Notes under the pieces: generated by a model
The model's input: the letters and a program-made list of their open reading frames with translations, nothing else
Database searches by the model: none
Told to the model about the DNA's origin: nothing
Shown here: positions 1 to 36,563 of the stretch, piece by piece
How positions within the stretch are numbered: position 1 is the stretch's first letter
Layout of the letters: every line of letters starts with the position of its first letter
Origin: Ranitomeya imitator
Lineage: Eukaryota
Direction: 5' to 3'
DNA length: 64,000 nt
Assembly: GCF_032444005.1 (NCBI RefSeq)
Contig: NC_091286.1
Location: 405,604,001 to 405,668,000 of the forward strand
Position numbers and translations under genes: made by a program

Positions 1-2046
1 TTTCCCATTGGGTGGCGAAAAATTTCAGTCTGCCCCCTACTGGTATATCCTCAGAATTTATTGTCTTTTGGGGGGTTGGGTCTTCTAAACATGGTACCTC
101 TTTGCCTGTCCTCTTTAGCAGTCCATGTTGTAGACCTATCCGTTTGCCTCCTTTTACCAAACGGTCTCCTCTTAAAGGCTCTCCTGTAAAAGGGAATGGA
201 GGAATCAGGGAAAGCTTTCTTCCTGTCCTTTGCCTTTTTGAGTATATCATCTAAGGTCTTGCCAAAGAGGTACTCACCCTCGCATGGGATTGCGCATATT
301 TTGGATTTAGACTGCGCGTCCCCTTTCCAGCTTTTCATCCAAAGTGCGCGTCTTGCATTATTCACAAGACCTGCGGATCTCGCTGCTAATCGAAGAGAGT
401 CGGCAGATGCGTCCGCCATAAAAGCTGCTGCTCCACGTATTAAGGGGATGGCCGCTCGAAGTTTCTCTCTCGAAACTTTATTTTCGATCTGCTGGTCCAA
501 CTGATCAATCCAAATGATCATTGACCGGGCAGCGCAGGTGCTGGCTACTGCAGGTTTAAAAATTCCAGTAGCCGCCTCCCAAGATCGCTTAAGGGATGAT
601 TCAGCTTTGCGATCTAATGGATCGACCAGAAGTCCCGCATCCTCCACAGGCAGAGTGGATTGCTTGGAGGTAGAAGCTACGGCTGCATCGACCTTAGGCA
701 CTTTGGTCCATGTAAGGAGCTCCTCATCACTAAACGGATATTTACGTTTAGACGCGGAGGGCAAAAAGCTTCTTTGATCCTGCTTCTCCCACTCTCTTTT
801 AATTAATGCTTTCACCGCTGGTATAACCGGAAAACATCTCCTCTTTCTCTCTGCCAAACCCGCAAACATAATTTCCTGCGTGGTTTGCGCACCCTTTACC
901 TCCTCACACCCCATGGTATTGCGGATTGATTTTACCAAGTTGTCCACACTGTCTAAGGGGAAACATGAACGCCCCTCGATTTCTGAGGAAGATGATGATG
1001 ATGATGATAGGGAGGCTTCTGACAGTAAGTGTTGGTGTTTTTGACTTAGCTTTACGCGGTTTTTCCTGGGTCATATTTTTAAGCTCCTCTCTAATAATGG
1101 CCCGTAAGTCCGTAAGGGACACTGTCGCTCCCTGAGTTGTTTCCTTAAAACAGTCTTTGCACAGTTTTTTTGCACAGTCCTTATGCTTGGACTTTTGTCG
1201 TTTTTTTGACTGGGCGTAAAAAGTAGCGAGAGAGAGAGAAAAGAGAGAGAAATAGGGAGACAGCGTCAGCTTAATAGGCAGAGTTTAACCACTCACCCAG
1301 TGAAGCGAATAGTACCGGATCAGAAGGCCGAGATCCTGTTCTGGAACCGTCACTCTTACGAGCGGACTCCGAGGATCCTTTGGTGTGATCTTTGGTGGGG
1401 GGCACTGGATCTCCAGCTGTGGGGTCCATGGCACCTGGGGATGACATCTCTGCATCGCCGCATTATTGTTTCTGGGCGTTTTTAAATAGTGCGCCCATTT
1501 CCTCTTTTTTTTTTTTTTTCTTTTTTTTTCTCTCTCCCCGCTGCGCAATGCGCATGCGCGGGTTGCCGCTGGCTCCCCCGCCCCAGATCCGGCCTAGGCG
1601 CCCCGGAAGTGACTCCTTCAGTTCCGGGGTAGCCAGTATTGCGGCAGTCGGCGCATGCGCGGTCCGGGATTCAGCGCCGGACCGCAATGGAGGTTGTCTT
1701 ACCCGGCTCCTTGCCGCACCGCACGCCGGAGAAGACGCCGGGCGGCCCTCCCCGGACCCGGCCGTCTGCTCCATCCACCAGCTGAGGAGGGAGCCGTCTA
1801 ACGGAACTCCCCCGACGCTGCTTCTGAGCTGCAGCCCCTGCCGTTCTCACGGACACCGCACAGGCGGCATGCTAGCCCAGGTATGTTGAAGTCGTCCTGT
1901 TGTTCCTGGATTGTTCCCGCAGGAACAGGAAACCTAAACTGAGGAGGAGAGGTGGACCGCCCCCTTTTATTTCTCGGTAGGTTTCCTGTTCCTGCGGGGC
2001 GGATCCCTCTCTCCAGTGGGGTGCTGTCGTGGCGAAAGGGAAAAAA
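1..2046 (-). mobile_element. DIRS1-type tyrosine-recombinase retrotransposon, 5' half (left terminus, ORF1, start of pol); continues beyond the left window edge
   Basis: ORF1 resembles LAP2alpha-like DIRS gag. The pol start PVGGRLKFFATQWE is read at 43->2, immediately after the ORF1 stop. The terminus on the - strand begins TTTTTTCCCTTTCGCCACG at 2046. Confidence 0.8.
51..947 (-). CDS. DIRS1 ORF1 (gag-like, LAP2alpha-related domain); upstream part frameshifted (continues to ~1200)
   Basis: 298-aa ORF with motifs typical of amphibian DIRS ORF1 (VPKVDAAV, DPLDRKAE, ARRALWMKSW, LFGKTLDDIL). Confidence 0.8.
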   Translation of the reverse strand: MDNLVKSIRNTMGCEEVKGAQTTQEIMFAGLAERKRRCFPVIPAVKALIKREWEKQDQRSFLPSASKRKYPFSDEELLTWTKVPKVDAAVASTSKQSTLPVEDAGLLVDPLDRKAESSLKRSWEAATGIFKPAVASTCAARSMIIWIDQLDQQIENKVSREKLRAAIPLIRGAAAFMADASADSLRLAARSAGLVNNARRALWMKSWKGDAQSKSKICAIPCEGEYLFGKTLDDILKKAKDRKKAFPDSSIPFYRRAFKRRPFGKRRQTDRSTTWTAKEDRQRGTMFRRPNPPKDNKF

Positions 2047-3310: not shown

Positions 3311-5764
3311 TTTTCTACTGTACAAGCACCGCCATCTTGATGGAGCCTAATTTTTTTTTTCTAGCAAAATTACGTCAGTGGCGGTGCCTGGCGTTCCGAT
3401 AGATGCTATTGCGGAGGTGCGACCATTTTGATGAAGCCTATTTTTTTCTCTGTCAAAATGATAGTGCCTGAGCCATTTTGTTTGAAAAAAATTCTTAGCT
3501 CCTTTACCCATGAGGGTGGTTTACATGTTAATGACCGGGCCAATTTTTACAATTATGACCACTGTCACTTTATGAGGTAATAACTATGGAAAGTTTCAAC
3601 TGATCCTGGTGATTCTGTGATTGTTGTTTTGTGATATATTGCACTTCATGATAGTGGTAAAATTTATTCGGTATGACTTGCGTTTATTTGTAAAAAAAAA
3701 AAAAAAACGAAATTTGGCGAAAATTTGGAAAATTTCACAATTTTCCAACTTTGAATTTTCATGCCCTTAAATCAGAGAGATATGTCACACAAAATAGTTA
3801 ATAAATAACATTTCCCATATGTCTACTTTATATCAGCACAATTTGTAACCCAATTTTTTTTTTGTTAGGAAGTTATAAGGGTTAAAAGTTGACCAGCGAT
3901 TTATCATTCTTCCAACAAAATTTACAAAAAAATTTTTTTAGGGACCACATCATATTTGAAGTCACTTTGAGGGGTCTATATGACAGAAGATACCCAAAAG
4001 TGACACCATTCTAAAAACTGCACCCCTCGAGGTGCTCAAAACCACATTCAAGAAGTTTATTAACCCTTCAGGTGCTTCACATGAATTTTTTGAAAAAAAA
4101 AATTAACATTTAACTTTTTTCACAAAAAATTAACTTGAGATCCAATTTTTTTCTTAATTTGACAAGGGTAACAGGAAAAATGGACCCCAAAATTTGTTGT
4201 ATAATTTTTTCTGAGTATGCCGATACCCCCATATGAGGGAGAAAACCACTGTTTGGGCACACGGCAGAGGTCAGAAGGGATGGAGCACCAATGCAAAATT
4301 TGATAGCACAGTTGGCTGACGCCATGTTGCATTTGGAGAGCCTCTGATGTGCCTAAATAGTGAAAATCCCCCACAAAAGACACCATTTTGGAAACTAGAC
4401 CCCTCAGGGAACTTATCTATATGTGTGGTGAGCATATTTAACCCAAAGATGCTTCACAGAAGTTTATAATGTTGAGCCATAAAAACCAAATTTTACCCAC
4501 AAATATGTTTTCAACACAAAATAATCGATTTTCATAAGGGTAACTGGAGAAATTGCACCATAGAATTTGTTGTTCAATTTCTCCTGAGTATGTCGATGCC
4601 CAACATGAAGAAAATTACTGTTTGGGCGCACGGCAGGGCTTGGAAGGGAAGGAGCGCCATTTGACTTTTTGAATGTAAAATTTCCTGGAATCATTAGTGG
4701 ACATCATGACCCATTTGGAGAGCCCCTCATGTGCCTAAACAGTGAAAATCTCCCACAAGTTACATCATTTTGGAAACTAGACCCCTCAGGGAAGTGATCT
4801 AGATGTGTGGTGAGCACACTGAACCATCAGGTGATTCACAGAAGTTTATAACACTGAGCCGTGAAAATAATAAAATCACATTTTCCTCACAAAAATGTTG
4901 TTTTAGCCCTAAGAGTTTATTTTTTCTAAGGGCTAATAGGAATTTTTTGTACAAACTGAGGTCCATTATTTCCTGAGTGCGTCAATACCCTACATGTAAT
5001 CGAGAAATATTTTTCAGGCACAGTGCAAAGCTCAGAAGGCAAAGAGCACCAGATTTTACTGTTATGGTTTGCAGGTCCGATGTCCTACTGGGAGAGCCCG
5101 AGGTGCCAGAACAGCAGAAACCCCCATAAGTGATCTTATTTTACAAAAGAAAAGGAAGAGGAGAATTTGCTGAATTTATTTTGGCAGGTGAGGAGCCATT
5201 TTGCTTTTCCAGAGCTTTTGCGCTACCAGTAACATGGAAGACCCCTATAATTCCGTTAACAGATGACGGACCTGAGTGATGGCTTGCTTTTTTTGTGGAT
5301 TTAATTGAAGCTTTTATTGGGAACATTTTACATAACGTTTGTGATCACAGTTATCCGGTGCTCTACACTTAGCACTTACTGTACTTTAGGGTTTCCATCT
5401 AAATCTCTGAGTGACGTGATTCAGATGAAACCCCCGAGGGATCTGTTTACTATAATAAGGAAAGAGAGTTACTCTGAACTCCGTCTGGCCTCTTTTCAGC
5501 AGTGTCCTTTTCAGAAGTGCACAAAACTGTGGCCGACGGCACTTTTATGCAATCCTAAAAAGACAGACACTGCTGGATCAGAGGTCAGACGGCATCCACA
5601 GCGTCTCCATCTGCCTCATTACAGGAATCTTCTGCCAGGGGTTCCGTCTGATTCACATATTTCAGAGATTTACACAGAAACCCTGGTGTAAGCACTCAGC
5701 GCAGAGCGCAGGATAAATGTGCACCGATACTCTCAAAGAATTATATCGGCACGAGGTGCATACA

Positions 5765-6936
5765 GCTTAAATCATAAAGTAGACCTCAGAAAATATATAA
5801 AACCACTATTTATTGCTTAAAATCAAGGCGACAAACCCAACCCATAGTGACCAATAAACAAAACAAACCAAAAATACAAAACGTGCTATAAAAACACCAT
5901 TGAACTAATGGGGAAGGTTATATCACCCTAGCCAGGTCATCTAGATGCTCCCCTACCTGGCTGCGGAGGTAGACACCCTAGGGGGAAACGTACTGGCGCC
6001 CCCGCTCCACGATGACTATCCCTAGGGGCCCTAGTGTGCGCTACAACACCTAGTGACAACCTCTACCCAGCATCTAAAGGGTCCTCTAGCACTATACAAA
6101 GATCTACTGTGCTAGGGAATGCCTATACCCCAAAACGAACAAGGAAGACAATAGACACCTATGGCGGTAGGTGAAGTAAATATATCAACACAACGGATAG
6201 TACTACGGACTGGGTGGGCAATAAAGGGTAGCTCACATAAGATTGGATATATTGCTACCAGACAGATCTTCCTGATTCACACCGACTGGAGCACCCTTAT
6301 TAAGTACCCCTGATACACCACCAATTCCTGTGTCATTCCCAATATATCAATATATATGGAGACCATGAGTACTCATCTGTCGGCATGTCCACACTACCGC
6401 CATCTATTATGAACGCTTCAACGCGTTTCGCCTGCCACGGCTCTTCAGGAGGCCAGATATCATGATACGTAGTGTCACTTATGATAATGGATAGCTTAAG
6501 CGCCCAGTCTCACCTTATCTACTTATATATCTGCCGCCAGCCATGCTCGCTCGAGGTGCCGTCTGACCACTTCCTGTGGCGTGCCCCAAGTTGCACTGCG
6601 CATGTCCACTCCGATCTGCGCACAGGGGACATCAAATAGCAGCCTCCTGCGCAGGTATCCCTATGTGTGTCCGAAGCGGGAGGTTTAAAAACACTACTGC
6701 GCATGTCAATATCACGTCACACAATGCCGCTGACCAACTGGATAGATACAGCGGAGGCACCGCCTGTCGGATTAATAAGGCAGCAAAAGCAGCACAGAGT
6801 GATATATGTGTCTGAAGCGGGAGGTTTAAAAACATTACTGCGCATGTCAATATCACACCGCACAGGGTAATGCCGCTGACCATCTGGATAAATACAGCGG
6901 AGGCACCGCCTGCCGGATTAATGAGGCAGCAAAAGC
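5765..6936 (-). repeat. PLE1 3' pLTR arm (inverted partner 16064-17234); includes two ~141-bp tandem units at ~6665-6940
   Basis: AGCTTAAATCATAAAGTAGACCTCAG (5765) is the reverse complement of 17209-17234, and the match extends along the whole arm (~98% by eye). Confidence 0.9.
6415..6453 (-). ncRNA. Minimal type I hammerhead ribozyme in the PLE1 pLTR (helix I carries a mismatch)
   Basis: - strand reads GCCTC CTGAAGA GCC GTGGCA GGC GAAA CGCG TT GAAGC. Confidence 0.75.
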
Positions 6937-7527: not shown

Positions 7528-9648
7528 TTACAGAAAACATGTATACGATATTTGCTCGTTAATTCCCTTCGGTTCAAGAGACTCCATCCTAAAAATCCAT
7601 TCACATTCACGTCTCAAAATCAATCTATCCAGATTGCCTTCTCTCGGGTTCACTTTCACCACCTCTAAGATAGTGAATCTAACCCCTGTTGGATCTTCAC
7701 TATGGTGAGTGTGCATATGTTTTGCCAATGGGGTATCCCTCTTATGGCGAACGTCGCCCATATGCTCCCCCACTCTTCTCCTAAACTCCCTCTTGGTTTT
7801 CCCAACATAATCCTTTGGGCAGGAGCAGGACGCCACATACACCACATCATTAGTTTTACAGTTTGAAAAATCACGTTGGTGAAAAATTCTACCTGTAGTG
7901 GAGCTCTGAACCTGTTTACACGGTCTCATCCACTGACACAGACTACAGTCTCCGCACCTAAAAAAGCCACAAGGCCTCCTATCCAACCAGGTCCCACCGG
8001 ATTTAGGTTGCTGGTACTGGCTATGTACCAACATATCTTTAATGGAGCGGCCCTTCCTGAATGTAATGTTAGGGCGTTCACCCGCCACGTCCATCAAATC
8101 CGGATCTAGTTTCAGGATATCCCAGTGTCTAGCAAAGGCCTTTCTGACCTCTTGATGCTGTGTGTCAAAAGTGCCAATGACCCTTATAGTATCATCGACC
8201 CCCGTCCTCCTATGTTTCTGCAACAACCCTTGTCTATCGGTCCTCCTTTCAAAGTCATAGGCCCTGCTCACGACAGGTCTCGGGTACCCCTTCTCTCTGA
8301 ACCTGTCGAACATATCACCAGACTGGCTCATAAAGGTATCCTCCCTGGAACAATTCCTCCTAAGCCTGAGGAATTGCCCCTTAGGTATCCCACTCTTCAG
8401 GGAGACCGGATGGTGACTGTCCCAGTGTAACAGACTGTTAGTGCTTGTCGGCTTTCTATAAATGCTTGTAGCTACTTGTCCACGTGCTTCTTTCACAATT
8501 TTCAAGTCCAGAAACGCCAACTCTATCTCACTGATCTCCGATGTAAATTTCAGGCCCACCTTATTTATGTTCAAACACCCCATAAACATTGTGAACTCCT
8601 CTTTTGTGCCAGTCCATACCATAAAAACATCGTCAATATATCTGTACCAGATGGATATAAGTTTATGCCACCACCTCTCTTCATCTCCAAAAACGATGGT
8701 CTCCTCCCACCAGCCCAGGAACAAATTAGCATACGACGGGGCACAAGGACACCCCATCGCTGTGCCCCTGAGCTGGTGGAAGTGTTTGCCATCGAAGGTA
8801 AATGCATTATGGGTGAGTATATATTCAAGCAATGTTATGACGAAATCGTTATGTTCCCTGCATCTGATTGATCTTTGTTGCAGAAAACACCTAGCTCCCT
8901 CAATACCTGCCCGATGCGGGATACTACTATATAATGCTTCTATGTCAATGGAAGTTAGCCAGGAGTCCTCTCCCAAATGCACCCCCTCCAGTTTTAGAAG
9001 CAAATCAGACGTATCCCTGAGGTAAGATGGCATAGCAGTGACGAATGGGCGGAGGACTTGGTCAACATACAGTCCACAATTTTGTGTCAGGGAATCCACC
9101 CCAGACACAATGGGACGCCCCTTCATGGGATGATATCCCTTATGCACCATAGGTAGTGCGTAAAAGGTTGCAGTTAAGTGAAATTGTGGTAGCATGAAAT
9201 CAAATTCACCCCGTGAGATAAGTTGGCGCGACAGCGCCTCTTCCAAAATTGATCTCAGATCATTTTTAAACATCTCAAGTGGGTTAGTGGTGAGTACTTC
9301 ATATGTAGTCCTGTCTTGTAGGATAGAGACACAGAGAGCTCGGTACTCGGGATGATCCATGATCACTAAATTCCCCCCTTTATCAGAGGGCTTTATGATC
9401 AACAGATCATTACTCTTAAGGCCATCTAATGCTCTTCGTTCATCCTCTGTGAGATTGTCCCCGGTCCGCCAATCCGTTTTCCTCAGTTTTTTAAGATCTC
9501 TTTCCACCAGAAGAGAAAATAGATCGATGTTACTCGTGTCACCTCGTGGTGGCATCTTCACACTTTTGTTTTTCAATGAGGTGAACGGGCCTTTACCTTC
9601 CTCCGGTGTCATATTAGGCTCCAGGAGTAGCCCACATAGGGCCTCATA
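7528..9648 (-). CDS. PLE1 reverse transcriptase + GIY-YIG endonuclease (C-terminal 704 aa plus the duplicated YE codons)
   Basis: RT motifs KPSDKGG, GRPIVS, DIEALYSSI, GTAMG, YIDD. Neptune-type Cys cluster CGFFRCGDCSLC. GIY-YIG-like VYVASCSCPKDYVGKT...RRRVGEH. No internal stops. Confidence 0.92.
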   Translation of the reverse strand, partial: YEALCGLLLEPNMTPEEGKGPFTSLKNKSVKMPPRGDTSNIDLFSLLVERDLKKLRKTDWRTGDNLTEDERRALDGLKSNDLLIIKPSDKGGNLVIMDHPEYRALCVSILQDRTTYEVLTTNPLEMFKNDLRSILEEALSRQLISRGEFDFMLPQFHLTATFYALPMVHKGYHPMKGRPIVSGVDSLTQNCGLYVDQVLRPFVTAMPSYLRDTSDLLLKLEGVHLGEDSWLTSIDIEALYSSIPHRAGIEGARCFLQQRSIRCREHNDFVITLLEYILTHNAFTFDGKHFHQLRGTAMGCPCAPSYANLFLGWWEETIVFGDEERWWHKLISIWYRYIDDVFMVWTGTKEEFTMFMGCLNINKVGLKFTSEISEIELAFLDLKIVKEARGQVATSIYRKPTSTNSLLHWDSHHPVSLKSGIPKGQFLRLRRNCSREDTFMSQSGDMFDRFREKGYPRPVVSRAYDFERRTDRQGLLQKHRRTGVDDTIRVIGTFDTQHQEVRKAFARHWDILKLDPDLMDVAGERPNITFRKGRSIKDMLVHSQYQQPKSGGTWLDRRPCGFFRCGDCSLCQWMRPCKQVQSSTTGRIFHQRDFSNCKTNDVVYVASCSCPKDYVGKTKREFRRRVGEHMGDVRHKRDTPLAKHMHTHHSEDPTGVRFTILEVVKVNPREGNLDRLILRRECEWIFRMESLEPKGINEQISYTCFL

Positions 9649-12600
9649 TGTTGTGAATTCTGTTGTCAAGCTCCCTCCTGTGGTCATGAATGGTACTTCG
9701 GCTGGTTCTGTCCATGGGCTTCCTCTGGTGGTTGTGAGTGGGGCTGCGGCTTCTGAGTTTCCTTCCACAGGTGACGAGGTTAATTCGTTAGCTGGCTGCT
9801 CTATTTAACTCCACTTAGATCATTGCCCCATGCCACCTGTCAATGTTCCAGTATTGGTCTGTTCACTCCTGGATCGTTCTTGTGACCTGTCTTCTCCAGC
9901 AGAAGCTAAGTTCCTGTTTGTTTTTCTCTTGTTTGCTATTTTTCTGTCCAGCTTGCTATTTTGATTTTTGTCTTGCTTGCTGGAAGCTCTGGGACGCAGA
10001 GGGAGCGCCCCCGCACCGTGAGTCGGTGCGGAGGGTCTTTTGCGCCCTCTGCGTGGTTTTTTTGTAGTTTTTGTGCTGACCGCAAAGTCACCTTTCCTAT
10101 CCTCTGTCTGTTCAGTAAGTCGGGCCTCTCTTTGCTAAATCTATTTCATCTCTGTGTTTGTGATTTTCATCTTAACTCACAGTCATATGTGGGGGGCTGC
10201 CTTTTCCTTTGGGGAATTTCTCTGAGGCAAGGTAGGCTTATTTTTCTATCTTTAGGGCTAGCTAGTTCCTTAGGCTGTGACGAGTTGCATAGGGAGCATT
10301 AGGAGCAATCCACGGCTATTTCTAGTGTGTGTGATAGGATTAGGGATTGCGGTCAGCAGAGTTCCCACGTCCCAGAGCTTGACCTGTATTATTGTAACGA
10401 TCAGGTCTTTCTGTGTGCACTTAACCACCAGGTCCATTATTGTCCTAACCACCAGGTCATAACAGTACAGGTGGCCCAAAGTATTAATGCATCTCAATAG
10501 AGGGATAAGAGAAGTTCTGAGACCATTTTTTTTTCTTTGCACTGTGTTTTGCCTTTCTTTTCCCCTAGACCTCTGGGTGGTTCAGGATACAGGTGTAGAG
10601 ATGGATATTCAAGGTCTGTCCTCTTGGATGGATAATCTCACTGCAAGTGTACAAAACATTCAAGATTTTGTGGTTCAGAATCCGATGTCAGGGCCTAAGA
10701 TTCCAATTCCTGATTTGTTTTTTGGGGATAGATCTAAGTTTCTGAATTTCAAAAATAATTGTAAATTGTTTCTTGCTTTGAAACCTCGCTCCTCAGGTGA
10801 CCCTGTTCAACAAGTGAAAATCATTATTTCTTTGTTACGTGGCGACCCTCAAGACTGGGCATTTTCCCTTGCGCCAGGAGATCCGGCATTGCGTGATGTT
10901 GATGCGTTTTTTCTGGCGCTTGGATTGCTTTATGATGAACCAAATTCAGTGGATCAGGCAGAGAAATTCAAGATTTTGTGGTTCAGAATCCGATGTCAGG
11001 GCCTAAGATTCCAATTCCTGATTTGTTTTTTGGGGATAGATCTAAGTTTCTGAATTTCAAAAATAATTGTAAATTGTTTCTTGCTTTGAAACCTCGCTCC
11101 TCAGGTGACCCTGTTCAACAAGTGAAAATCATTATTTCTTTGTTACGTGGCGACCCTCAAGACTGGGCATTTTCCCTTGCGCCAGGAGATCCGGCATTGC
11201 GTGATGTTGATGCGTTTTTTTCTGGCGCTTGGATTGCTTTATGATGAACCAAATTCAGTGGATCAGGCAGAGAAAATCTTGCTGGCTCTGTGTCAGGGTC
11301 AGGATGAGGTAGAGATATATTGTCAGAAGTTTAGGAAGTGGTCTGTACTCACTCAGTGGAATGAGTGCGCCCTGGCAGCAATTTTCAGAAAGGGTCTCTC
11401 TGAAGCCCTTAAGGATGTCATGGTGGGATTTCCCATGCCTGCTGGTCTGAATGAGTCTATGTCTTTGGCCATTCAGATCGATCGACGCTTGCGTGAGCGT
11501 AAAGCTGTGCACCATTTGGCGGTATTATCTGAGCATAGACCTGAGCCTATGCAATGTGATAGGACTTTGACCAGAGCTGAACGGCAAGAACACAGACGTC
11601 GGAATGGGCTGTGTTTTTACTGTGGTGATTCCACTCATGCTATTTCCGATTGCCCTAAGCGCACTAAGCGGTTCGCTAGGTCTGCCACCATTGGTACGGT
11701 ACAGTCGAAATTTCTTTTGTCCGTTACTCTGATTTGTTCTTTGTCATCCTATTCTGTTATGGCATTTGTGGATTCAGGCGCTGCCCTGAATTTGATGGAC
11801 TTGGAGTTTGCTAGGCGCTGTGGTTTTTTCTTGGAGCCCTTGCAGTATCCTATTCCATTGAGAGGAATTGATGCTACGCCTTTGGCCAAGAATAAGCCTC
11901 AGTACTGGACCCAATTGACCATGTGCATGGCTCCTGCACATCAGGAGGATATTCGCTTTTTGGTGTTGCATAATCTGCATGATGTGGTCGTTTTGGGGTT
12001 GCCATGGCTACAGGTCCATAATCCAGTATTGGATTGGAAATCTATGTCTGTGTCCAACTGGGGTTGTCAGGGAGTACATGGTGATGTTCCATTTTTGTCA
12101 ATTTCGTCGTCCACTCCTTCTGAAGTCCCGGAGTTTTTGTCGGATTACCGGGATGTATTTGATGAGCCCAAATCCAGTGCCTTACCTCCTCATAGGGATT
12201 GCGATTGTGCTATTAATTTGATTCCTGGTAGTAAGTTTCCTAAGGGCCGACTGTTCAATTTGTCTGTGCCAGAACACGCCGCTATGCGGAGTTATATAAA
12301 GGAATCCTTGGAGAAGGGTCATATTCGCCCGTCGTCGTCACCATTGGGAGCAGGGTTCTTTTTTGTGGCCAAGAAGGATGGTTCTTTGAGACCTTGTATT
12401 GATTACCGCCTTCTTAATAAAATTACAGTCAGGTTTCAGTATCCTTTGCCGCTGCTGTCTGATTTGTTTGCTCGTATTAAAGGGGCTAGTTGGTTCACCA
12501 AGATAGATCTTCGAGGGGCGTATAATCTTGTGCGTATTAAACAGGGCGATGAATGGAAAACAGCATTTAATATGCCCGAGGGCCATTTTGAGTACCTGGT

Positions 12601-15600
12601 TATGCCATTCGAGCTTTCCAATGCTCCATCAGTATTTCAGTCCTTTATGCATGACATCTTCCGAGAGTACCTGGATAAATTCCTGATTGTATATTTGGAT
12701 GATATTTTGGTCTTTTCGGATGATTGGGAGTCTCACGTGAAGCTGGTCAGAATGGTGTTCCAGGTCCTTCGTGCGAATTCTTTGTTTGTGAAGGGGTCAA
12801 AGTGTCTCTTTGGAGTTCAGAAGGTTTCATTTTTGGGGTTCATTTTTTCCCCTTCTACTATCGAGATGGACCCTGTTAAAGTCCAGGCCATTTATGATTG
12901 GACTCAGCCGACATCTGTGAAGAGCCTGCAAAAGTTCCTGGGCTTTGCTAATTTTTATCGTCGCTTCATCAGTAGTTTTTCTAGTGTTGCTAAACCGTTG
13001 ACTGATTTGACCAAGAAAGGTGCTGATGTGGTCAATTGGTCCTCTGCGGCTGTAGAGGCTTTTCAGGAGCTGAAGCGTCGTTTTTCTTCTGCCCCTGTGT
13101 TGTGCCAGCCAGATGTTTCGCTCCCATTTCAGGTCGAGGTTGATGCTTCTGAGATTGGAGCAGGGGCTGTTTTGTCGCAAAGAAGTTTTGATGGCTCAGT
13201 GATGAAACCATGTGCCTTCTTTTCTAGAAAGTTTTTGCCTGCTGAGCGCAATTATGATGTTGGCAATCGAGAGTTGTTGGCCATGAAGTGGGCATTCGAG
13301 GAGTGGCGTCATTGGCTTGAAGGAGCCAAGCATCGCGTGGTGGTCTTGACGGATCACAAGAATTTGACTTATCTCGAGTCTGCCAAACGGTTGAATCCTA
13401 GACAGGCTCGATGGTCACTATTTTTCTCCCGTTTTGATTTTGTGGTTTCGTACCTTCTGGGCTCTAAGAATGTGAAGGCTGATGCCCTGTCAAGGAGTTT
13501 TGTGCCCGACTCTCCGGGTGTTCCTGAGCTGGCGGGTATTCTCAAAGAGGGGGTAATTTTGTCTGCCATCTCCCCTGATTTGCGGCGGGTGCTGCAAAAA
13601 TTTCAGGCTGATAGACCTGACCGTTGCCCAGCGGAGAAACTGTTTGTCCCTGATAAATGGACTAGTAGAGTTATCTCTGAGGTTCATTGTTCGGTGTTGG
13701 CTGGTCATCCTGGAATCTTTGGTACCAGAGATTTGGTGGCTAGATCCTTTTGGTGGCCGTCTTTGTCACGGGATGTGCGTTCTTTTGTGCAGTCCTGTGG
13801 GACTTGTGCTCGGGCTAAGCCCTGCTGTTCTCGTGCCAGTGGGTTGCTTTTGCCCTTGCCAGTCCCGAAGAGGCCCTGGACGCATATTTCTATGGATTTT
13901 ATTTCGGATCTCCCTGTCTCTCAAAGGATGTCGGTCATTTGGGTGGTTTGTGATCGCTTCTCTAAGATGGTCCATTTGGTACCCTTGTCTAAATTGCCTT
14001 CCTCCTCTGATTTGGTGCCATTGTTTTTCCAGCATGTGGTCCGTTTACATGGCATTCCGGAGAACATCGTTTCGGACAGAGGTTCCCAGTTTGTTTCGAG
14101 GTTTTAGCGATCCTTTTGTGCTAGGATGGGCATTGATTTGTCTTTTTCCTCGGCTTTCCATCCTCAGACAAATGGCCAAACCGAACGAACTAATCAGACT
14201 TTGGAAACATATCTGAGATTCTTTGTTTCTGCTGATCAGGATGATTGGGTGTCCTTTTTGCCTTTGGCTGAGTTCGCCCTTAATAATCGGGCCAGCTCGG
14301 CCACTTTGGTTTCGCCGTTTTTCTGCAATTCTGGTTTCCATCCTCGTTTCTCTTCAGGGCAGGTTGAGTCTTCGGACTGTCCTGGTGTAGATACTGTGGT
14401 GGATAGGTTGCAGCGGATTTGGACTCATGTGGTGGACAATTTGACATTGTCCCAGGAGAAGGCTCAACGTTTCGCTAACCGCCAGCGCTGTGTGGGTCCC
14501 CGACTTCGTGTTGGGGATTTGGTTTGGTTGTCGTCTCGTTATGTTCCTATGAAGGTTTCCTCTCCTAAGTTTAAGCCTCGTTTCATTGGTCCGTATAAGA
14601 TTTCTGAGGTTCTCAATCCTGTGTCATTTAGTTTGACCCTTCCAGCTTCTTTTGCCATCCATAATGTGTTCCATAGGTCGTTGTTGCGGAGATACGTGGC
14701 GCCTGTGGTTCCATCCGTTGATCCTCCTGCCCCGGTGTTGGTTGAGGGGGAGTTGGAGTATGTGGTGGAGAAGATTTTGGATTCTCGTATTTCGAGACGG
14801 AAACTCTAGTACCTGGTCAAGTGGAAGGGTTATGGTCAGGAAGATAATTCCTGGGTCTTTGCCTCTGATGTTCATGCTGCCGATCTGGTTCGTGCCTTTC
14901 ATTTGGCTCGTCCTGGTCGACCTGGGGGCTCTGGTGAGGGTTCGGTGACCCCTCCTCAAGGGGGGGGGGGTACTGTTGTGAATTCTGTTGACAAGCTCCC
15001 TCCTGTGGTCATGAATGGTACTTTGGCTGGTTCTGTCCATGGGCTTCCTCTGGTGGTTGTGAGTGGGGCTGCGGCTTCTGAGTTTCCTTCCACAGGTGAC
15101 GAGGTTAATTTGTTAGCTGGCTGCTCTATTTAACTCCACTTAGATCTTTGCTCCATGCCACCTGTCAATGTTCCAGTATTGGTCTGTTCGCTCCTGGATC
15201 GTTCTTGTGACCTGTCTTCTCCAGCAGAAGCTAAGTTCCTGTTTGTTTTTCTCTTGTTTGCTATTTTTCTGTCCAGCTTGCTATTTTGATTTTTGTCTTG
15301 CTTGCTGGAAGCTCTGGGACGCAGAGGGAGCGCCCCCGCACCGTGAGTCGGTGCGGAGGGTCTTTTGCGCCCTCTGCGTGGTTTTTTTGTAGTTTTTGTG
15401 CTGACCGCAAAGTCACCTTTCCTATCCTCTGTCTGTTCAGTAAGTCGGGCCTCTCTTTGCTAAATCTATTTCATCTCTGTGTTTGTGATTTTCATCTTAA
15501 CTCACAGTCATATGTGGGGGGCTGCCTTTTCCTTTGGGGAATTTCTCTGAGGCAAGGTAGGCTTATTTTTCTATCTTTAGGGCTAGCTAGTTCCTTAGGC

Positions 15601-15789
15601 TGTGACGAGTTGCATAGGGAGCATTAGGAGCAATCCACGGCTATTTCTAGTGTGTGTGATAGGATTAGGGATTGCGGTCAGCAGAGTTCCCACGTCCCAG
15701 AGCTTGACCTGTATTATTGTAACGATCAGGTCTTTCTGTGTGCACTTAACCACCAGGTCCATTATTGTCCTAACCACCAGGTCATAACA
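9649..15789 (+). mobile_element. Gypsy 1: full-length chromovirus (sushi/Tf1-like) LTR retrotransposon
   Basis: 816-bp TG...CA LTRs at 9649-10464 and 14974-15789 (about 6 substitutions counted). PPT at 14958-14970. 6-bp TSD CTCATA at 9643-9648 and 15790-15795. Confidence 0.97.
10601..14973 (+). pseudogene. Gypsy 1 single-frame gag-pol (gag, CCHC, protease, RT, RNase H, integrase, chromodomain), disabled
   Basis: Motifs [32 protein letters not shown]...C, DRGSQF and chromodomain EYVVEKILDSR...YLVKWKGY. Disrupted by a 308-bp gag duplication and stops at 14105-14107 and 14807-14809. Confidence 0.95.
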
Positions 15790-16062
15790 CTCATACCCCT
15801 CCATATCTTCCTGGTCCAGCCCTAAACTCTCACATTCTTCACGAGTCTTATGTTTGAAAAACTTTTTCCATTTTAACTTTCTAGTGAACAAATTGAGGTC
15901 TTTTAACCACTCGAAACAGTCAAAATTATTTCTTGGGACAAAGTTGAGGCCTCTCTGCAGGACATCATACTCATGTCTGGAGAGTACATGCGAGGACAGG
16001 TTAATAATATGGCCCCTATTCAATTGAGCCGGGTTCTTAGTTGATACCCTGTTCTCGCACCC
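15790..16062 (-). CDS. PLE1 ORF N-terminal segment (5'-truncated, no ATG)
   Basis: IINLSSHVLSRHEYDVLQRGLNFVP is a typical PLE N-terminal motif. It joins the RT in frame (EGYE|ALCGLL) when the Gypsy and one TSD copy are removed. Confidence 0.9.
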
Positions 16063-16063
16063 T

Positions 16064-17234
16064 GCTTTTGCTGCCTTATTAATCCGGCAGGCGGTGCCTC
16101 CGCTGTATTTATCCAGATGGTCAGCGGCATTACCCTGTGCGGTGTGATATTGACATGCGCAGTAATGTTTTTAAACCTCCCGCTTCAGACTCATATATCT
16201 CTCTGTGCGGCTTTTGCTGCCTTATTAATCCGACAGGCGGTGCCTCCGCTGTATCTATCCAGTTGGTCAACGGCATTGTGCGACGTGATATTGACATGCG
16301 CAGTAGTGTTTTTAAACCTCCCGCTTCGGACACACATAGGGATACCTGCGCAGGAGGCTGCTATTTGATGTCCCCTGTGCGCAGATCGGAGTGGACATGC
16401 GCAGTGCAACTTGGGGCACGCCACAGGAAGTGGTCAGACGGCACCTCGAGCGAGCATGGCTGGCGGCAGATATATAAGTAGATAAGGTGAGACTGGGCGC
16501 TTAAGCTATCCATTATCATAAGTGACACTACGTATCATGATATCTGGCCTCCTGAAGAGCCGTGGCAGGCGAAACGCGTTGAGGCGTTCATTATAGATGG
16601 CGGTAGTGTGGACATGCCGACAGATGAGTACTCATGGTCTCCATATATATTGATATATTGGGAATGACACAGGAATTGGTGGTGTATCAGGGGTACTTAA
16701 TAAGGGTGCTTCAGTCGGTGTGAATCAGGAAGATCTGTCTGGTAGCAATATATCCAATCTTATGTGAGCTACCCTTTATTGCCCACCCAGTCCGTAGTAC
16801 TATCCGTTGTGTTGATATATTTACTTCACCTACCGCCATAGGTGTCTATTGCCTTCCTTGTTCGTTTTGGGGTATAGGCATTCCCTAGCACAGTAGATCT
16901 TTGTATAGTGCTAGAGGACCCTTTAGATGCTGGGTAGAGGTTGTCACTAGGTGTTGTAGGGCACACTAGGGCCCCTAGAGTTAGTCATCGTGGAGCGGGG
17001 GCGCCAGTACGTTTCCCCCTAGGGTGTCTACCTCCGCAGCCAGGAAGGGGAGCATCTAGATGACCTGGCTAGGGTGATATAGCCTTCCCCATTAGTTCAA
17101 TGGTGTTTTTATAGCAAGTTTTGTATTTTTGGTTTGTTTTGCTTATTGGTCACTATGGGTTGGGTTCGTCGCCTTGATTTTAAGCAATAAAGTGGTTTTA
17201 TATATTTTCTGAGGTCTACTTTATGATTTAAGCT
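16064..17234 (+). repeat. PLE1 5'-inverted pLTR arm
   Basis: Reverse complement of 5765-6936. Confidence 0.9.
16547..16585 (+). ncRNA. Minimal type I hammerhead ribozyme (intact helix I GCCTC/GAGGC)
   Basis: GCCTC CTGAAGA GCC GTGGCA GGC GAAA CGCG TT GAGGC: core CUGANGA and GAAA, palindromic helix III, GUU site. Confidence 0.85.
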
Positions 17235-17254
17235 AAATGTGCACCGAGCCTTAA

Positions 17255-17973
17255 GGTACCGTCACACATAACGATATCGTTAACGATATCATTGCTTTTT
17301 GTGACGTAGCAACAATATCGTTAACGAAATCGTTATGTGTGACAGCGACCAACGATCAGGCCCCTGCTGGGAGATCGTTGGTCGCTGGGGAAAGTCCAGG
17401 ACTTTATTTCGTCGCTGGATCTCCTGCTGACATCGCTGAATCGGCGTGTGTGACGCCGATTCAGCGATGTCTTCACTGGTAACCAGGGTAAACATCGGGT
17501 TACTAAGCGCAGGGCCGCGCTTAGTAACCCGATGTTTACCCTGGTTACCATTGTAAAAGTAAAAAAAAAACACTACATACTTACATTCCTGTCACGTTCC
17601 TCAGCGTCAGCTTCCCTGCGTTCCCCAGTGTCAGCACCGGCCGTAAAGCAAAGCACAGCGGTGACGTCACCGCTGTGCTTTCCGGCCTACGCTTACACAG
17701 TGCAGGGAAGCTGAGGCCGGAGGACGCGACAGGAATGTAAGTATGAAGTGTTTTTGTTTTACTTTTACAATGGTAACCAGGGTAAACATTGGGTTACTAA
17801 GTGCGTCCCTGCGCTTAGTAACCCGATGTTTACCCTGGTTACCTGGGGACTTCGGGATCGTTGGTCGCTGGAGAGCTGTCTGTGTGACAGCACTCCAGCG
17901 ACCAAACAGCGACGCTGCAGCGATCGGCATCGTTGTCTAGATCGCTGCAGCGTCGCTTAATGTGACAGTACCT
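17255..17973. mobile_element. Harbinger-like MITE (GGTACCGTCACAC family); other copies at 24217-24952 and 38232-38665
   Basis: TIRs GGTACCGTCACAC / TGTGACAGTACC, and internal GGTAACCAGGGTAAACATCGGGTTACTAAGCGC hairpins at ~17477 and ~17772. Confidence 0.8.
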
Positions 17974-18908
17974 TTACTGCGATCTTTGGGATGCAGAATG
18001 AAAAAAATCAACAGCATGTGAAGAATTGTTTTTATTTTTTATACCGTTCCTCATGCGGTATAAATGATTAGGCGACTTTATTATTCAGGTCAGTGAGATT
18101 ACATCGATAACAGATTTGTATAGGGTTTTTATGTTTGGCTGCTGTCACACACTAAAAGACATTTTTTATTGCAAAAAATAGTTTTTGCATCACATTTTAA
18201 AAGCTATATTTTTTCCATATTTTGGCCCATAGAACCATGTGAGGTCTTGTTATTTGTTGGATGAGTTGATGTTTTTATTGGTACCATTTTCGGGCACATG
18301 ACATTTTATCGCTTTCTATTTTGATTTTTGGGAGGCAGAATTAACAAAAACCAGCAACTCAGTATAAGGCAGTTTTATTCTTCGGGCCAGTATGATTACA
18401 GCGATACCTCATTTATATAGTTTTTTTTTTCATGTTTTGGTGCTTTTATACAATACAAAATAGAAATAAAAAAATAGAAAAAATAATTATGTTCGCATTG
18501 CTTCATTCTGAGAGCTATAACTTTTTTATTTCTCTGCTGATGGAGAAGTATGGTGGCTTGTTTTTTGCTGAACAAGATGATGTTTTCAGTGGTACCATCT
18601 TTTTAATCGCATTTTATTCCACTTTTTGTTCGGCAGTATGATGATAAAGCATTGGTTTTTGCCTTGTTTTTAATTTTTTTATGGTATTCACTAAAGGGGT
18701 TAACTAGTGGGACAGTTTTATAGGTCTTGTACAAAAAGAAAAAAAAAGAGCATGAACCGCACATCCCAAAATCATACGTTGATCTAAAGCCGCTAGGCAA
18801 AAATTTATATACTGAACATGCGATACATATATGCTAGCCACCTTAGGGAGAGACCCAAGTTGGGCTAAATGTAGCGGGACGAAAGAGACCGAAAAGCCCT
18901 CTACTTAA

Positions 18909-19236
18909 AGGGACACTGTCACCTGGATTTGGAGGGAACAATCTTCCGCCATGGAGGCGGGGTTTTGGGGTTTTTGATTCACCCTTTCCTTACCCGCTGG
19001 CTGCATGCTGGCTGCAATATTGGATTGAAGTTCATTCTCTGTCCTCCATAGTACACGCCTGCGCAAGGCAAGATTGCCTTGTGCAGGCATGTACTACGGA
19101 GGACAGAGAATGAACTTCAATCCAATATTGCAGCCAGCATGCAGCCAGCGGGTAAGGAAAGGGTGAATCAAAAACCCCAAAACCCCGCCTCCATGGCTGA
19201 AGATTGTTCCCTCCAAATCCAGGTGACAGTGTCCCT
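18909..19236. mobile_element. Kolobok/T2-type palindromic MITE
   Basis: TTAA at 18905-18908 and 19237-19240, and near-perfect TIRs AGGGACACTGTCACCTGGATTTGGAGGG. The empty site is seen at 19621. Confidence 0.9.
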
Positions 19237-19449
19237 TTAAAGGAAATACATAGTGGATGCTTTCCTGAAACGGAAAGTACTTGCAAGCAGCATAATACAA
19301 AGAATAGCAGGTTTACCCAGAATCCTTTGCAGTAGGCGGAGCTATGCAAATCATCTCTTTCCACCCCAGTCTAATCCACAGCGCTTGGAACCGCCAAGCG
19401 TGCAATGCTGCGGATTAGTTTCTAAATTTACACAGCCAACTAATTCCTA

Positions 19450-30758: not shown

Positions 30759-33700
30759 TGTTATGAACAGGTGATTCAGAACCACAATGGACCTAGTGGT
30801 TAAGAGCACACAAAGTGACCTGATAGATACTAACATAGGACGAGCTCTGAGACGTGGGAACTCTGCTGACCGCAATCCCTAATCCTATCATACCACACTA
30901 GAGGTAGCCGTGGATTGCGCCTAACGCTCCCTATGCAACTCGGCACAGCCTGAGAAACTAGCTAGCCCTGAAGACAGAAAAATAAGCCTACCTTGCCTCA
31001 GAGAAATTCCCCAAAGGAAAAGGCAGCCCCCCACATATAATGACTGTGAGTTAAGATGAAAATACAAACACAGAGATGAAATAGATTTTAGCAAAGTGAG
31101 GCCCGACTTACTGAATAGACCGAGGATAGGAAAGATAGCTTTGCGGTCAGCACAAAAACCTACAAACAACCACGCAGAGGGGGCAAAAAGACCCTCCGCA
31201 CCGACTAACGGTACGGAGGTGCTCCCTCTGCGTCTCAGAGCTTCCAGCAAGCAAGAAAAACCAATATAGCAAGCTGGACAGAAAATATAGCAAACAAAAG
31301 TAACACAAGCAAAACTTAGCTTATGCAGGGCAGACAGGCCACAAGAATGATCCAGGAGAAAGCAAGACCAATACTGGAACATTGGCTGGAGGCCAGGAAC
31401 AAAGAACTAGGTGGAGTTAAATAGAGCAGCACCTAACGACTTAACCTCGTCACCTGAGGAAGGAAACCCAGAAGCCGCAGCCCCACTCACATCCACCAGA
31501 GGAAGCTCACAGACAGAACCAGCCGAAGCACCACCCATGACCACAGGAGGGAGCTTGACCACAGAATTCACAACAGTACCCCCCTTGAGGAGGGGTCACC
31601 GAACCCTCACCAGAGCCCCCAGGCCGACCAGGATGAGCCAAATGAAAGGCACGAACCAGATCGGCAGCATGAACATCAGAGGCAAAGACCCAGGAATTAT
31701 CTTCCTGACCATAACCCTTCCACTTAACCAGGTACTGGAGTTTCCGTCTCGAAATACGAGAATCCAAAATCTTCTCCACTATATACTCCAACTCCCCCTC
31801 AACCAAAACCGGAGCAGGAGGATCAACGGATGGAACCACAGGTGCCACGTATCTCCGCAACAATGACCTATGGAATACGTTATGGATGGAAAAAGAAGCT
31901 GGAAGGGTCAAACGAAAAGACACAGGATTAAGAACCTCAGAAATCCTATACGGACCAATGAAACGAGGCTTAAACTTAGGAGAGGAAACTTTCATAGGAA
32001 TATAGCGAGATGACAACCAAACCAAATCCCCAACACGAAGTCGGGGACCCACACAGCGCCTGCGGTTAGCGAAACGTTGAGCCTTCTCCTGAGACAATGT
32101 CAAATTGTCCACCACATGAGTCCAAATCTGCTGCAACCTATCCACCACAGTATCCACACCAGGACAGTCAGAAGACTCAACCTGTCCTGAAGAGAAACGA
32201 GGATGGAAACCAGAATTGCAGAAAAACGGCGAAACCAAAGTAGCCGAGCTGGCCCGATTATTAAGGGCGAACTCAGCCAAAGGCAAAAAGGACACCCAAT
32301 CATCCTGATCGGCAGAAACAAAACATCTCAGATATGTTTCCAAGGTCTGATTGGTTCGTTCAGTCTGGCCATTTGTCTGAGGATGGAAAGCCGAGGAAAA
32401 AGACAAATCAATGCCCATCCTAGCACAAAAGGATCGCCAAAACCTCGAAACAAACTGGGAACCTCTGTCAGAAACGATGTTCTCCGGAATGCCATGTAAA
32501 CGAACCACATGCTGGAAGAACAAGGGCACCAAATCAGAGGAGGAAGGCAATTTAGACAAGGGTACCAAATGGACCATCTTAGAGAAGCGATCACAAACAA
32601 CCCAAATGACCGACATTTTTTGAGAGACGGGGAGATCCGAAATAAAATCCATAGAGATATGTGTCCAGGGCCTCTTCGGGACTGGCAAGGGCAAAAGCAA
32701 CCCACTGGCACGAGAACAGCAGGGCTTAGCCCAAGCACAAATCCCACAGGACTGCACAAACGAACGCACATCCCGCGACAGAGACGGCCACCAAAAGGAT
32801 CTAGCCACCAAATCTCTGGTACCAAAGATTCCAGGATGACCAGCCAACACCGAACAATGAACCTCAGAGATAACTCTACTCGTCCATTTATCAGGGACAA
32901 AAAGTTTCTCCGCTGGGCAACGGTCAGGTCTATTAGCCTGAAATTTTTGCAGCACCCGCCGCAAATCAGGGGAGATGGCAGACAAAATTACCCCCTCTTT
33001 GAGAATACCCGCCGGCTCAGACAAACCCGGAGAGTCGGCCACAAAACTCCTAGACAGGGCATCCGCCTTCACATTTTTAGAGCCCGGAAGGTACGAAACC
33101 ACAAAGTCAAAACGGGAGAAAAACAGCGACCAACGAGCCTGTCTAGGATTCAACCGTTTGGCAGACTGGAGATAAGTCAAGTTCTTGTGATCAGTCAAGA
33201 CCACCACGCGATGCTTAGCTCCTTCTAGCCAATGACGCCACTCCTCGAATGCCCACTTCATGGCCAGCAACTCTCGATTGCCAACATCATAATTACGCTC
33301 AGCAGGCGAAAACTTCCTGGAAAAGAAGGCGCATGGTTTCATCACCGAGCCATCAGAACTTCTTTGCGACAAAACAGCCCCTGCTCCAATCTCAGAAGCA
33401 TCAACCTCGACCTGGAACGGGAGCGTAACATCTGGTTGGCACAACACAGGGGCAGAAGAAAAACGACGCTTCAACTCTTGAAAAGCTTCCACAGCAGCAG
33501 AAGACCAATTGACCACATCAGCACCCTTCTTGGTTAACTCAGTCAACGGTTTAGCAATACTAGAAAAATTATTGATGAAGCGACGATAAGAATTAGCAAA
33601 GCCCAGGAACTTTTGCAGACTCTTCAGAGATGTCGGCTGAGTCCAATCATAAATGGCCTGAACTTTAACAGGGTCCATCTCGATAGTAGAAGGGGAAAAA

Positions 33701-36563
33701 ATGAACCCTAAAAATGAAACCTTCTGAACACCAAAGAGACACTTTGACCCCTTCACAAACAAAGAATTCGCACGCAGAACCTAGAACACCATTCTGACCT
33801 GCTTCACGTGAGACTCCCAATCATCCGAGAAGACCAAAATATCATCCAAGTATACAATCAGGAATTTATCCAGGTACTCTCGGAAGATGTCATGCATAAA
33901 GGACTGAAACACTGATGGAGCATTAGAAAGCCCGAATGGCATAACCAGGTACTCAAAATGGCCTTCGGGCGTATTAAATGCTGTTTTCCATTCATCGCCC
34001 TGTTTAATACGCACAAGATTATACGCACCACGAAGATCTATCTTGGTGAACCAACTAGCCCCCTTAATCCGAGCAAACAAATCAGACAGAAGCGGCAAGG
34101 GGTACTGAAATTTGACCGTGATTTTATTTAGAAGGCGGTAATCAATACAAGGTCTCAGCGAACCATCCTTCTTGGCCACTAAAAAGAACCCTGCTCCCAA
34201 TGGCGACGACGACGGGCGAATATGACCCTTCTCCAAGGATTCCTTTACGTAACTCCGCATAGCGGCATGCTCAGGCACAGACAAATTAAACAGTCGACCC
34301 TTAGGAAACTTACTACCAGGAATCAAATCGATAGCACAATCACAATCCTTATGTGGAGGTAGGGCACTGGACTTGGGCTCATCAAATACATCCCGGTAAT
34401 CTGACAAGAACTCTGGGACCTCAGAAGGGGTGGATGATGAAATAGACAGAAAAGGAACATCACCATGTACCCCCCGACAACCCCAGCTGGACACAGACAT
34501 TGATTTCCAATCCAATACTGGGTTATGGACTTGTAGCCATGGCAACCCCAACACGACCACATCATGCAGATTATGCAACACCAAAAAGCGAATATCCTCC
34601 TGATGCGCAGGAGCCATGCACATGGTCAGCTGGGTCCAGTACTGAGGCTTATTCTTGGCCAAAGGAGTAGCATCAATTCCTCTCAATGGAATAGGATACT
34701 GCAAGGGCTCCAAGAAAAAACCACAGCGCCTAGCATACTCCAAGTCCATCAAATTCAGGGCAGCGCCTGAATCCACAAATGCCATGACAGAATAGGATGA
34801 CAAAGAGCAGATCAAAGTAACGGACAAAAGAAATTTCGACTGTACCGTACCAATGGTGGCAGACCTAGCGAACCGCTTAGTGCGCTTAGGACAATCGGAG
34901 ATAGCATGAGTGGAATCACCACAGTAAAAACACAGCCCATTCTGACGTCTGTGTTCTTGCCGTTCAGCTCTGGTCAAAGTCCTATCGCACTGCATAGGCT
35001 CAGGTCCATGCTCAGATAATACCGCCAAATGGTGCACAGTTTTACGCTCACGCAAGCGTCGACCGATCTGAATGGCCAAAGACATAGACTCATTCAGACC
35101 AGCAGGCATAGGAAATCCCACCATGACATCCTTAAGGGCTTCAGAGAGACCTTTTCTGAAAATTGCTGCCAGCGCACATTCATTCCATTAAGTGAGCATA
35201 GACCACTTCCTAAACTTCTGACAATATATCTCTACCTCATCCTGACCCTGAGACAGAGCCAGCAAATTTTTCTCTGCCTGATCCACTGAATTGGGTTCAT
35301 CATACAGCAATCCGAGCGCCAGAAAAAACGCATCAATATTACATAATGCAGGATCTCCTGGCGCAAGGGAAAATGCCCAGTCTTGAGGGTCGCCACGTAA
35401 TAAAGAAATAATGATCTTAACTTGTTGAACTGGGTCACCAGAGGAGCGGGGTTTCAAAGCCAGAAACAGTTTACAATTATTCTTAAAACTCAGAAACTTA
35501 GCTCTATCTCCAGAAAACAAATCAGGAATAGAAATTCTTGGCTCTAACATAGAATTCTGAACCACAAAGTCTTGAATATTTTGTACTCTTGCAGTGAGAT
35601 GATCCACACAAGAAGACAGATCTTTAATGTCCATCACTACACCTGTGTCCTGAACCACCCAAATGTCTAGGGGAAAAGAAAGACAAAACACAGTACAGAG
35701 AAAAAAAAAATGGTCTCAGAACTTCTCTTTTCCCTCTATTGAGAAGCATTAGTACTTTGGGCCTCCAGTACTGTTATGAACAGGTGATTCAGAACCACAA
35801 TGGACCTAGTGGTTAAGAGCACACAAAGTGACCTGATAGTTACTAACATAGGACGAGCTCTGAGACGTGGGAACTCTGCTGACCGCAATCCCTAATCCTA
35901 TCATACCACACTAGAGGTAGCCGTGGATTGCGCCTAATGCTCCCTATGCAACTCGGCACAGCCTGAGAAACTAGCCCTGAAGACAGAAAAATAAGCCTAC
36001 CTTGCCTCAGAGAAATTCCCCAAAGGAAAAGGCAGCCCCCCACATATAATGACTGTGAGTTAAGATGAAAATACAAACACAGAGATGAAATAGTCTTTAG
36101 CAAAGTGAGGCCCGACTTACTGAATAGACCGAGGATAGGAAAGATAGCTTTGCGGTCAGCACAAAAACCTACAAACAACCACGCAGAGGGGGCAAAAAGA
36201 CCCTCTGCACCGACTATGCGTCTCAGAGCTTCAAGCAAGCAAGAAAAACCAATATAGCAAGCTGGACAGAAAATATAGCAAACAAAAGTAACACAAGCAA
36301 AACTTAGCTTATGCAGGGCAGACAGGCCACAAGAATGATCCAGGAGAAAGCAAGACCAATACAGGAACATTGGCTGGAGGCCAGGAACAAAGAACTAGGT
36401 GGAGTTAAATAGAGCAGCACCTAACGACTTAACCTCGTCACCTGAGGAAGGAAACCCAGAAGCCGCAGCCCCACTCACATCCACCAGAGGAAGCTCACAG
36501 ACAGAACCAGCCGAAGCACCACCCATGACCACAGGAGGGAGCTTGACCACAGAATTCACAACA
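30759..36563 (-). mobile_element. Gypsy 2: full-length chromovirus, sister subfamily of Gypsy 1
   Basis: LTRs at 35772-36563 (5', 792 bp) and 30759-31575 (3', 817 bp). PPT CAAGGGGGG. 6-bp TSD CATAGC at 30753-30758 and 36564-36569. Confidence 0.97.
31507..35634 (-). pseudogene. Gypsy 2 gag-pol with chromodomain; two in-frame nonsense codons
   Basis: ORFs 35188-35691, 33781-35124 and 31507-33762 are separated by single TAA/TAG codons where Gypsy 1 has CAG. Same domains as Gypsy 1. Confidence 0.95.

Follow-up and report, generated by a model that had tools for sequence, protein, structure and literature searches.

Compensatory changes between LTR and primer-binding site support self-priming in chromodomain retrotransposons of the frog Ranitomeya imitator

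Do the retrotransposons at this locus use a host tRNA to begin reverse transcription, or a piece of their own RNA? The window (the whole stretch of 64,000 nucleotides that was analysed, from contig NC_091286.1 of Ranitomeya imitator) contains two Ty3/gypsy elements, G1 and G2, whose primer-binding sites (PBSs) are complementary to a short segment of their own long terminal repeats (LTRs). An earlier note on this DNA had pointed to two differences between G1 and G2 that are matched on both sides of the putative duplex, and had taken them as evidence for self-priming. By itself, the comparison of G1 with G2 amounts to a single phylogenetic contrast, and the remaining evidence comes from the whole genome. 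Given those data, we consider it very likely that G1 and G2 prime reverse transcription without a tRNA, with the 9-mer at the predicted 5′ end of their own RNA.

Two young chromodomain retrotransposons

G1 and G2 are young chromodomain Ty3/gypsy retrotransposons, probably of the Tf1/sushi type (Table 1). The domain order protease, reverse transcriptase, RNase H, integrase is present (Pfam; the best PDB match is Ty3 Gag-Pol, E = 1e-108), as are LTRs with TG...CA ends, a polypurine tract, target-site duplications (TSDs), and a CCHC motif in gag. Gag and pol share a single frame, which in G2 extends as far as integrase and in G1 continues over the gag-pol junction. The C-terminus of the G2 integrase carries a chromodomain (PF00385, E = 9e-13, Pfam), and the G1 frame stops within the chromodomain. 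In G1, a 313-bp tandem duplication in gag (10658-11278) breaks the frame, and gag-pol has stops at 14105-14107 and 14807-14809. The two elements are 85-88% alike in their LTRs and 93% alike from gag to the 3′ end. Neither AATAAA nor ATTAAA, as polyadenylation signals, occurs in the LTRs at 9649-10464 and 35772-36563.

The nearest named proteins are predictions from poison frogs (up to 97%), followed by elements of other frogs and of fish (about 55-70%) and then by fungal elements (45-50%). By these homolog ranks, and by a Tf2-like SH3 domain, G1 and G2 are compatible with the vertebrate chromoviruses (V-clade, Tf1/sushi group). Amphibian chromodomain integrases and vertebrate chromoviruses of the V-clade are described in PMC4131045 and PMC2774666.

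Both window elements have TSDs of 6 bp, and so do all 15 readable full-length pairs (20 examined). Of 21 solo or unpaired LTRs that were examined, 20 were readable, and 17 of these also have a TSD of 6 bp. Ty3/gypsy elements usually have TSDs of 4-5 bp. Our literature search for a reported 6-bp TSD found nothing; among plant LTR elements, the frequency of 6-bp TSDs is given as only 0.4% (PMC6317226).

Table 1. Coordinates of the features of G1 and G2 in the window
Feature	Position	Strand	Basis or remark
G1 whole element	9649-15789	+	
G1 TSD, 6 bp	left 9643..9648, right 15790-15795	+	
G1 5′ LTR, 816 bp, TG...CA	9649..10464	+	99.3% identity to 3′ LTR
G1 TATA-like box TATTTAA	9802..9808	+	
G1 predicted self-primer GCCACCTGT, predicted RNA +1..+9	9832..9840	+	TATA+30, family-wide register
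G1 PBS ACAGGTGGC	10467..10475	+	2 nt past LTR end
G1 gag-pol	10601..14809	+	CCHC, protease, RT, RNase H, integrase, Tf2-like SH3
G1 polypurine tract	14958..14970	+	
G1 3′ LTR	14974..15789	+	identical 9-mer at 15157-15165
G2 whole element	36563-30759	-	
G2 TSD, 6 bp	left 36564-36569, right 30753-30758	-	
G2 5′ LTR	35772..36563	-	96% identity to its 3′ LTR
G2 TATA-like box	36405..36411	-	
G2 predicted self-primer, core GCCTCCAG from 36381	36373..36382	-	
G2 PBS ACTGGAGGC (35769-35761) plus next C	35760..35769	-	2 nt past LTR end
G2 gag-pol, one frame	31507..35715	-	stops at 35188-35190, 33781-33783
G2 chromodomain	about 31785-31642	-	
G2 3′ LTR	30759..31575	-	

Pairing between the LTR and the PBS

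The four 9-mers named in the earlier note lie where it had placed them and are exact reverse complements. In G1, the LTR 9-mer was correctly put 30 nt downstream of the TATA-like box (the T of the box is at 9802 and the core runs from 9832). By chance, a match to the G1 9-mer would arise with a probability of 0.003 over the whole LTR and of 4e-5 if only TATA+25..35 is considered. In G2, the 9-mer that had been put 29 nt past the TATA box does pair exactly, but it is one base out of the G1 register: the T of the G2 box is at 36411, and the 8-nt core that is common to both elements starts 30 nt later, at 36381. The G2 9-mer had been drawn one base upstream because the window copy has C at +9 (36373) and most G2 copies have T there, which gives pairing over 9-10 nt. 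Both LTRs of the window G2 have this C, with the PBS unchanged, which is a point against the reading proposed here. The G at 36382 is also able to pair, and a 10-nt primer is possible in G2. Of the proposed RNA starts, 9832 fits, but in G2 the start is more likely to be 36381 than about 36382. A start at 36382 is disfavoured, as the base at -1 varies (T, C, or G) in replicating sublineages while the C opposite it is fixed.

Primer positions +4 and +7 distinguish the two subfamilies, and at both of them the PBS is altered in step. The claim that neither element has a canonical TGG is true for 0-3 nt past the LTR, but there is a TGG at 4 nt in G2 and at 7 nt in G1.

In predicted folds, the duplex between primer and PBS has P ≥ 0.5 in 15 of 23 copies; the other 8 folds do not favour it. 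All four matched states have a duplex energy of about -16 kcal/mol, and single mismatches leave about -11 kcal/mol. The two 'pretzel' duplexes that flank the pairing in Tf1 were not consistently recovered across the 23 folds. In its predicted fold, the window G1 has a 10-bp stem at the end of U5, and other copies show different partners.

Covariation across the genome

Within the R. imitator genome, we counted junctions as exact 22-nt patterns and asked whether the LTR and PBS letters covary. There are 5,461 junctions of the G1 type, 8,272 of the G2 type, 31 of the CTGGTGGC type, and 67 of the CAGGAGGC type, so that the two double states make up 13,733 of the 13,831 exact junctions. For the main types, the first 30 junctions of each by position gave 27 and 27 readable LTR 9-mers, and all 54 match the PBS at both sites.

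Every copy of the rare PBS types (98) was inspected. The LTR letters were readable in 30 of the CTGGTGGC copies, where they are compensating in 7, G1-like in 12, and G2-like in 11; among the 60 readable CAGGAGGC copies, these numbers are 31, 22, and 7. Relative to 0/54 in the main types, Fisher tests give P = 4e-4 (7/30) and 3e-11 (31/60), with the caveat that copies are not independent. Mismatched copies are in the majority (23/30 for CTGGTGGC and 29/60 for CAGGAGGC), which tells against self-priming with coupled changes; they amount to about 0.1-0.4% of the parent types, and we read them as probable point mutations after insertion. The compensating copies imply that each pair changes separately and that all four matched states exist.

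The reverse test started from the LTR and took all 70 matches of the variant 9-mer in G1 context. In 23 of these the match is a 5′ LTR with a PBS, and the PBS is compensated in 13 and not in 10, compared with a background of 32/5,493. As controls, we examined PBS variants at two other positions of the duplex. At the pair for +9, coupling was seen in 0/30 copies; these were the first 30 of 72 matches, and 8 of the 30 belong to a single duplicated array. The G-C pair for +6 gave 1/30, from the first 30 of 130 matches.

Thus, the covariation of the two 9-mers holds across the genome and splits into single-pair changes, and, as described next, it recurs in independent lineages. Together, about 13,800 intact junctions and the repeated single-pair compensations are a natural version of a break-and-restore experiment, and they support the self-priming that the earlier note had proposed.

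Timing and independent origins of the paired changes

If the variant is in both LTRs of an element, then the change predates its insertion. We selected 20 copies and located the 3′ LTR in 16. The variant is also in the 3′ LTR of 8/8 double variants on the G1 background and of 3/4 on the G2 background, and wherever both ends are readable they have a common TSD. From the list of 70 matches, the variant is in both LTRs of 7 elements with a matched PBS and of 3 with the old PBS. At these last three loci, every LTR that was found has the variant, and the TSD confirms two of them as single insertions. Two copies are discordant: L112 has the variant in its 5′ LTR and PBS and the ancestral state in its 3′ LTR, all within one TSD, and L091 lies in a variant clade yet has the ancestral 9-mer.

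The paired change arose several times. With the primer and PBS removed from the alignment, monophyly was rejected for the double variants on the G1 background (10 copies in a 34-row subset, p-AU = 1e-9, at least 5 changes) and for those on the G2 background (14 copies in a 37-row subset, p-AU = 1e-65, two separately starred groups). These tests used groups that were defined by state after a rough tree had been inspected, and subsets that were chosen by the analyst with long-branch rows left out; also, the number of origins may be overestimated owing to recombination and CpG homoplasy. Carriage of the G1-background variant on U3 from one origin is still conceivable, as the U3 signal is low, but it is not supported: the ten copies show more than one haplotype.

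Other families in the genome

Two gag queries identified 51 loci of more distant families in the same genome, and the junction is readable in 49. The PBS always begins 2 nt past the LTR at these 49 loci. In family A, the PBS matches the LTR exactly in 25/40 copies, with one mismatch in 11/40, and not at all in 4/40. Family B has a match in 7/7 copies, and an internal G-C pair (3 copies) is replaced by A-U in the others (4 copies). Family D has a match at its one locus (1/1), and family C has none at its one locus. In families A and B, the partner of the PBS starts with G, 30-31 nt past the TATA box. Swapping sequences across families gave 0 matches, and each PBS fits the LTRs of its own family only. 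So, three other families (A, B, and D) keep the geometry with different letters.

The 9-nt PBS is followed by C in both window elements (10476 and 35760) and at 48 of the 49 other-family loci (L329-L379), although these families are related. This C lies opposite the predicted RNA position -1, where the cap G would be. That it pairs with the cap is speculation.

How the paired changes may arise

By analogy with Tf1 (PMC7175516), the element's RNA would start at the G (9832 in G1, 36381 in G2), and positions +1..+9 would fold onto the PBS. The element's RNase H would then cut near +9/+10, as in the Tf1 model, and leave the primer. When the plus strand is made, the primer would in turn be copied and so become the new PBS; a mutation in the primer would thereby rewrite the PBS in about half of the products of the following round. 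Flips between A-U and U-A would cost no stability and could then spread.

We lean towards the view that copying of the primer does rewrite the PBS, so that paired changes arise in one step. The basis for this proposal is that the plus strand copies the primer in Tf1 (PMC11042837) and in HIV/SIV (PMC4549124). In HIV/SIV, too, the plus-strand PBS is described as copied from the primer, which leaves a heteroduplex (PMC4549124); however, the HIV/SIV primer is a fixed host tRNA and the PBS reverts, whereas the predicted primer of the frog elements is encoded by the element, so primer and PBS could drift together. The repeated origins fit rewriting, as do the three loci with the variant in both LTRs and the old PBS, which correspond to the intermediate that rewriting predicts. 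The control positions fit less well: they tell against rewriting alone, unless such variants fail to spread. On balance, it seems somewhat probable that primer and PBS drift together by single steps and that the genome records this repeatedly, with the intermediates in place. If so, rewriting would account for the fact that PBS sequences differ from one self-priming family to the next.

An alternative is that self-priming operates just the same but that the paired changes are two separate mutations, kept together by selection. This would account for coupling at the two A-U pairs that distinguish G1 and G2 and its absence at the two control positions, and the intermediates could survive because a single mismatch leaves a pairing energy of about -11 kcal/mol. 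Several of the matched groups are amplified clades. On the other hand, there are several origins among copies that are only 1-4% apart, each of which would need a second transversion at the exact site, and the background for that second change is just about 0.1-0.4% per copy. Elements with the variant in both LTRs also have a matched PBS more often than an unmatched one (7 versus 3). We therefore view two separate mutations as possible but rather doubtful.

Alternatives to self-priming

A second possibility is that the pairing is a structural RNA stem (for folding, packaging, or translation control), that another RNA is the primer, and that the 9-mer need not be the 5′ end. Covariation does demonstrate pairing rather than priming. 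Nevertheless, a structural stem seems improbable because in 5/5 family groups examined its 3′ strand coincides exactly with the place of the PBS, 2 nt past the end of the LTR, and because in G1, G2, A, and B its 5′ strand opens with a G that lies 30-31 nt past the TATA box. Also, the base before that G varies freely while the C opposite it is fixed.

Third, a host tRNA (its 3′ end or an internal fragment) could be the primer, and the match to the LTR could be incidental. The TGG that lies 4 nt past the LTR in G2 is a point in its favour, and the first six letters there presumably resemble the start of a glutamine-tRNA PBS. Yet that TGG is missing from families A, B, C, and D and from two types of copies that did replicate, G1 and CAGGAGGC. 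In one clade that replicates, the PBS contains no TGG. A search with Rfam gave 63 matches, and ARAGORN on the retrieved loci returned only Lys and Cys genes; against these 36 tRNA sequences (Lys and Cys genes only), the best run of the PBS that is anchored at the 3′ end is 3 nt. Finally, a tRNA-primed PBS should track the tRNA and not the LTR (as PMC4549124 describes), so we regard tRNA priming as very unlikely. One cluster from this search (L387-L409, G000:C4:660.78-660.84 Mb) consists of tRNA genes arrayed in tandem, with a repeat length of about 1,008 bp.

Fourth, the paired changes could have been made at the DNA level, through repair templated by the inverted repeat, through gene conversion, or through recombination of one subfamily with the other. 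Recombination is common in LTR elements, and the LTRs of L112 are discordant. This origin is nevertheless most improbable, because the two arms measure 9 bp each and are separated by about 635 bp, the 3′ LTR has the variant as well, and such events would not explain the match in every family. Moreover, simple crossovers between G1 and G2 do not account for the double variants on the G1 background, whose U3 and leader are still of the G1 type.

Relation to known self-priming elements

Like Tf1-type elements, the frog elements are chromodomain Ty3/gypsy elements whose PBS directly follows the 5′ LTR and is complementary to the predicted 5′ end of the RNA. Such complementarity is reported for Tf1 and Tf2 of Schizosaccharomyces pombe and for Tj1, Tosmo1-3, and Tcry1 (PMC7175516, PMC4600332, PMC10085805). 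The frog primer would be 9-10 nt long, as compared to 11 nt in Tf1. The frog gag has a CCHC motif, and the fission-yeast elements are described as being without it (PMC10085805). Also, gag and pol are in one frame in the frog elements, whereas members of the Tf1/sushi group outside the fission yeasts are said to use mostly -1 frameshifting (PMC10085805). The same source gives Tf1 and Tf2 as having a single ORF, so one frame does not exclude the frog elements from the Tf1/sushi group.

Self-priming is stated to be common among Tf1/sushi elements of fungi and vertebrates alike (PMC10085805, PMC6317226, PMC4600332), and the proposal that vertebrate elements self-prime is credited to Butler et al. 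2001 (as cited in PMC10085805 and PMC6317226). In the published work that we consulted, it is proven in fission yeast and predicted from sequence for the vertebrate relatives. Because the prediction for this group is already published, the novelty of our results is modest: what is new is a natural compensatory-change test of self-priming, and no new mechanism is revealed. We found no published covariation analysis within a family, in a search that most subscription papers lay beyond; Butler et al. 2001 may show compensation between elements. For experiments, the family gives a definite prediction of where the RNA starts and how long the primer is (9-10 nt at TATA+30). The results also suggest a simple route for a PBS to diversify once it is freed from the tRNA.

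Neighbouring repeats and arrayed copies

An inverted pair of 1.17 kb, at 5764-6936 and 16064-17234 and 98% identical, flanks G1. A 758-aa open frame on the minus strand (7528-9804) has a weak match to reverse transcriptase (E = 2e-6, below the cut-off); as this frame runs into the 5′ LTR of G1, G1 may sit inside another retroelement. Elsewhere in the window, there is a long array of a 35-bp tandem repeat (from 41600 to about 47500), and many nested inverted repeats of 100-700 bp at 17250-25000 and 38200-38950 are possibly short DNA transposons.

Five pairs of junctions that share an identical rare PBS letter are just 4.5-6.3 kb apart (L068/L069, L081/L082, L271/L272, L281/L282, and L307/L308), which suggests that duplication produced tandem elements. 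Yeast is known to have Tf elements in tandem (PMC11042837). On a larger scale, one G2 junction recurs in 11 copies at L291-L298 (G000:C2:625.1-626.3 Mb), each time with an identical rare PBS letter and at intervals of 80-170 kb, which is likely a large segmental array.
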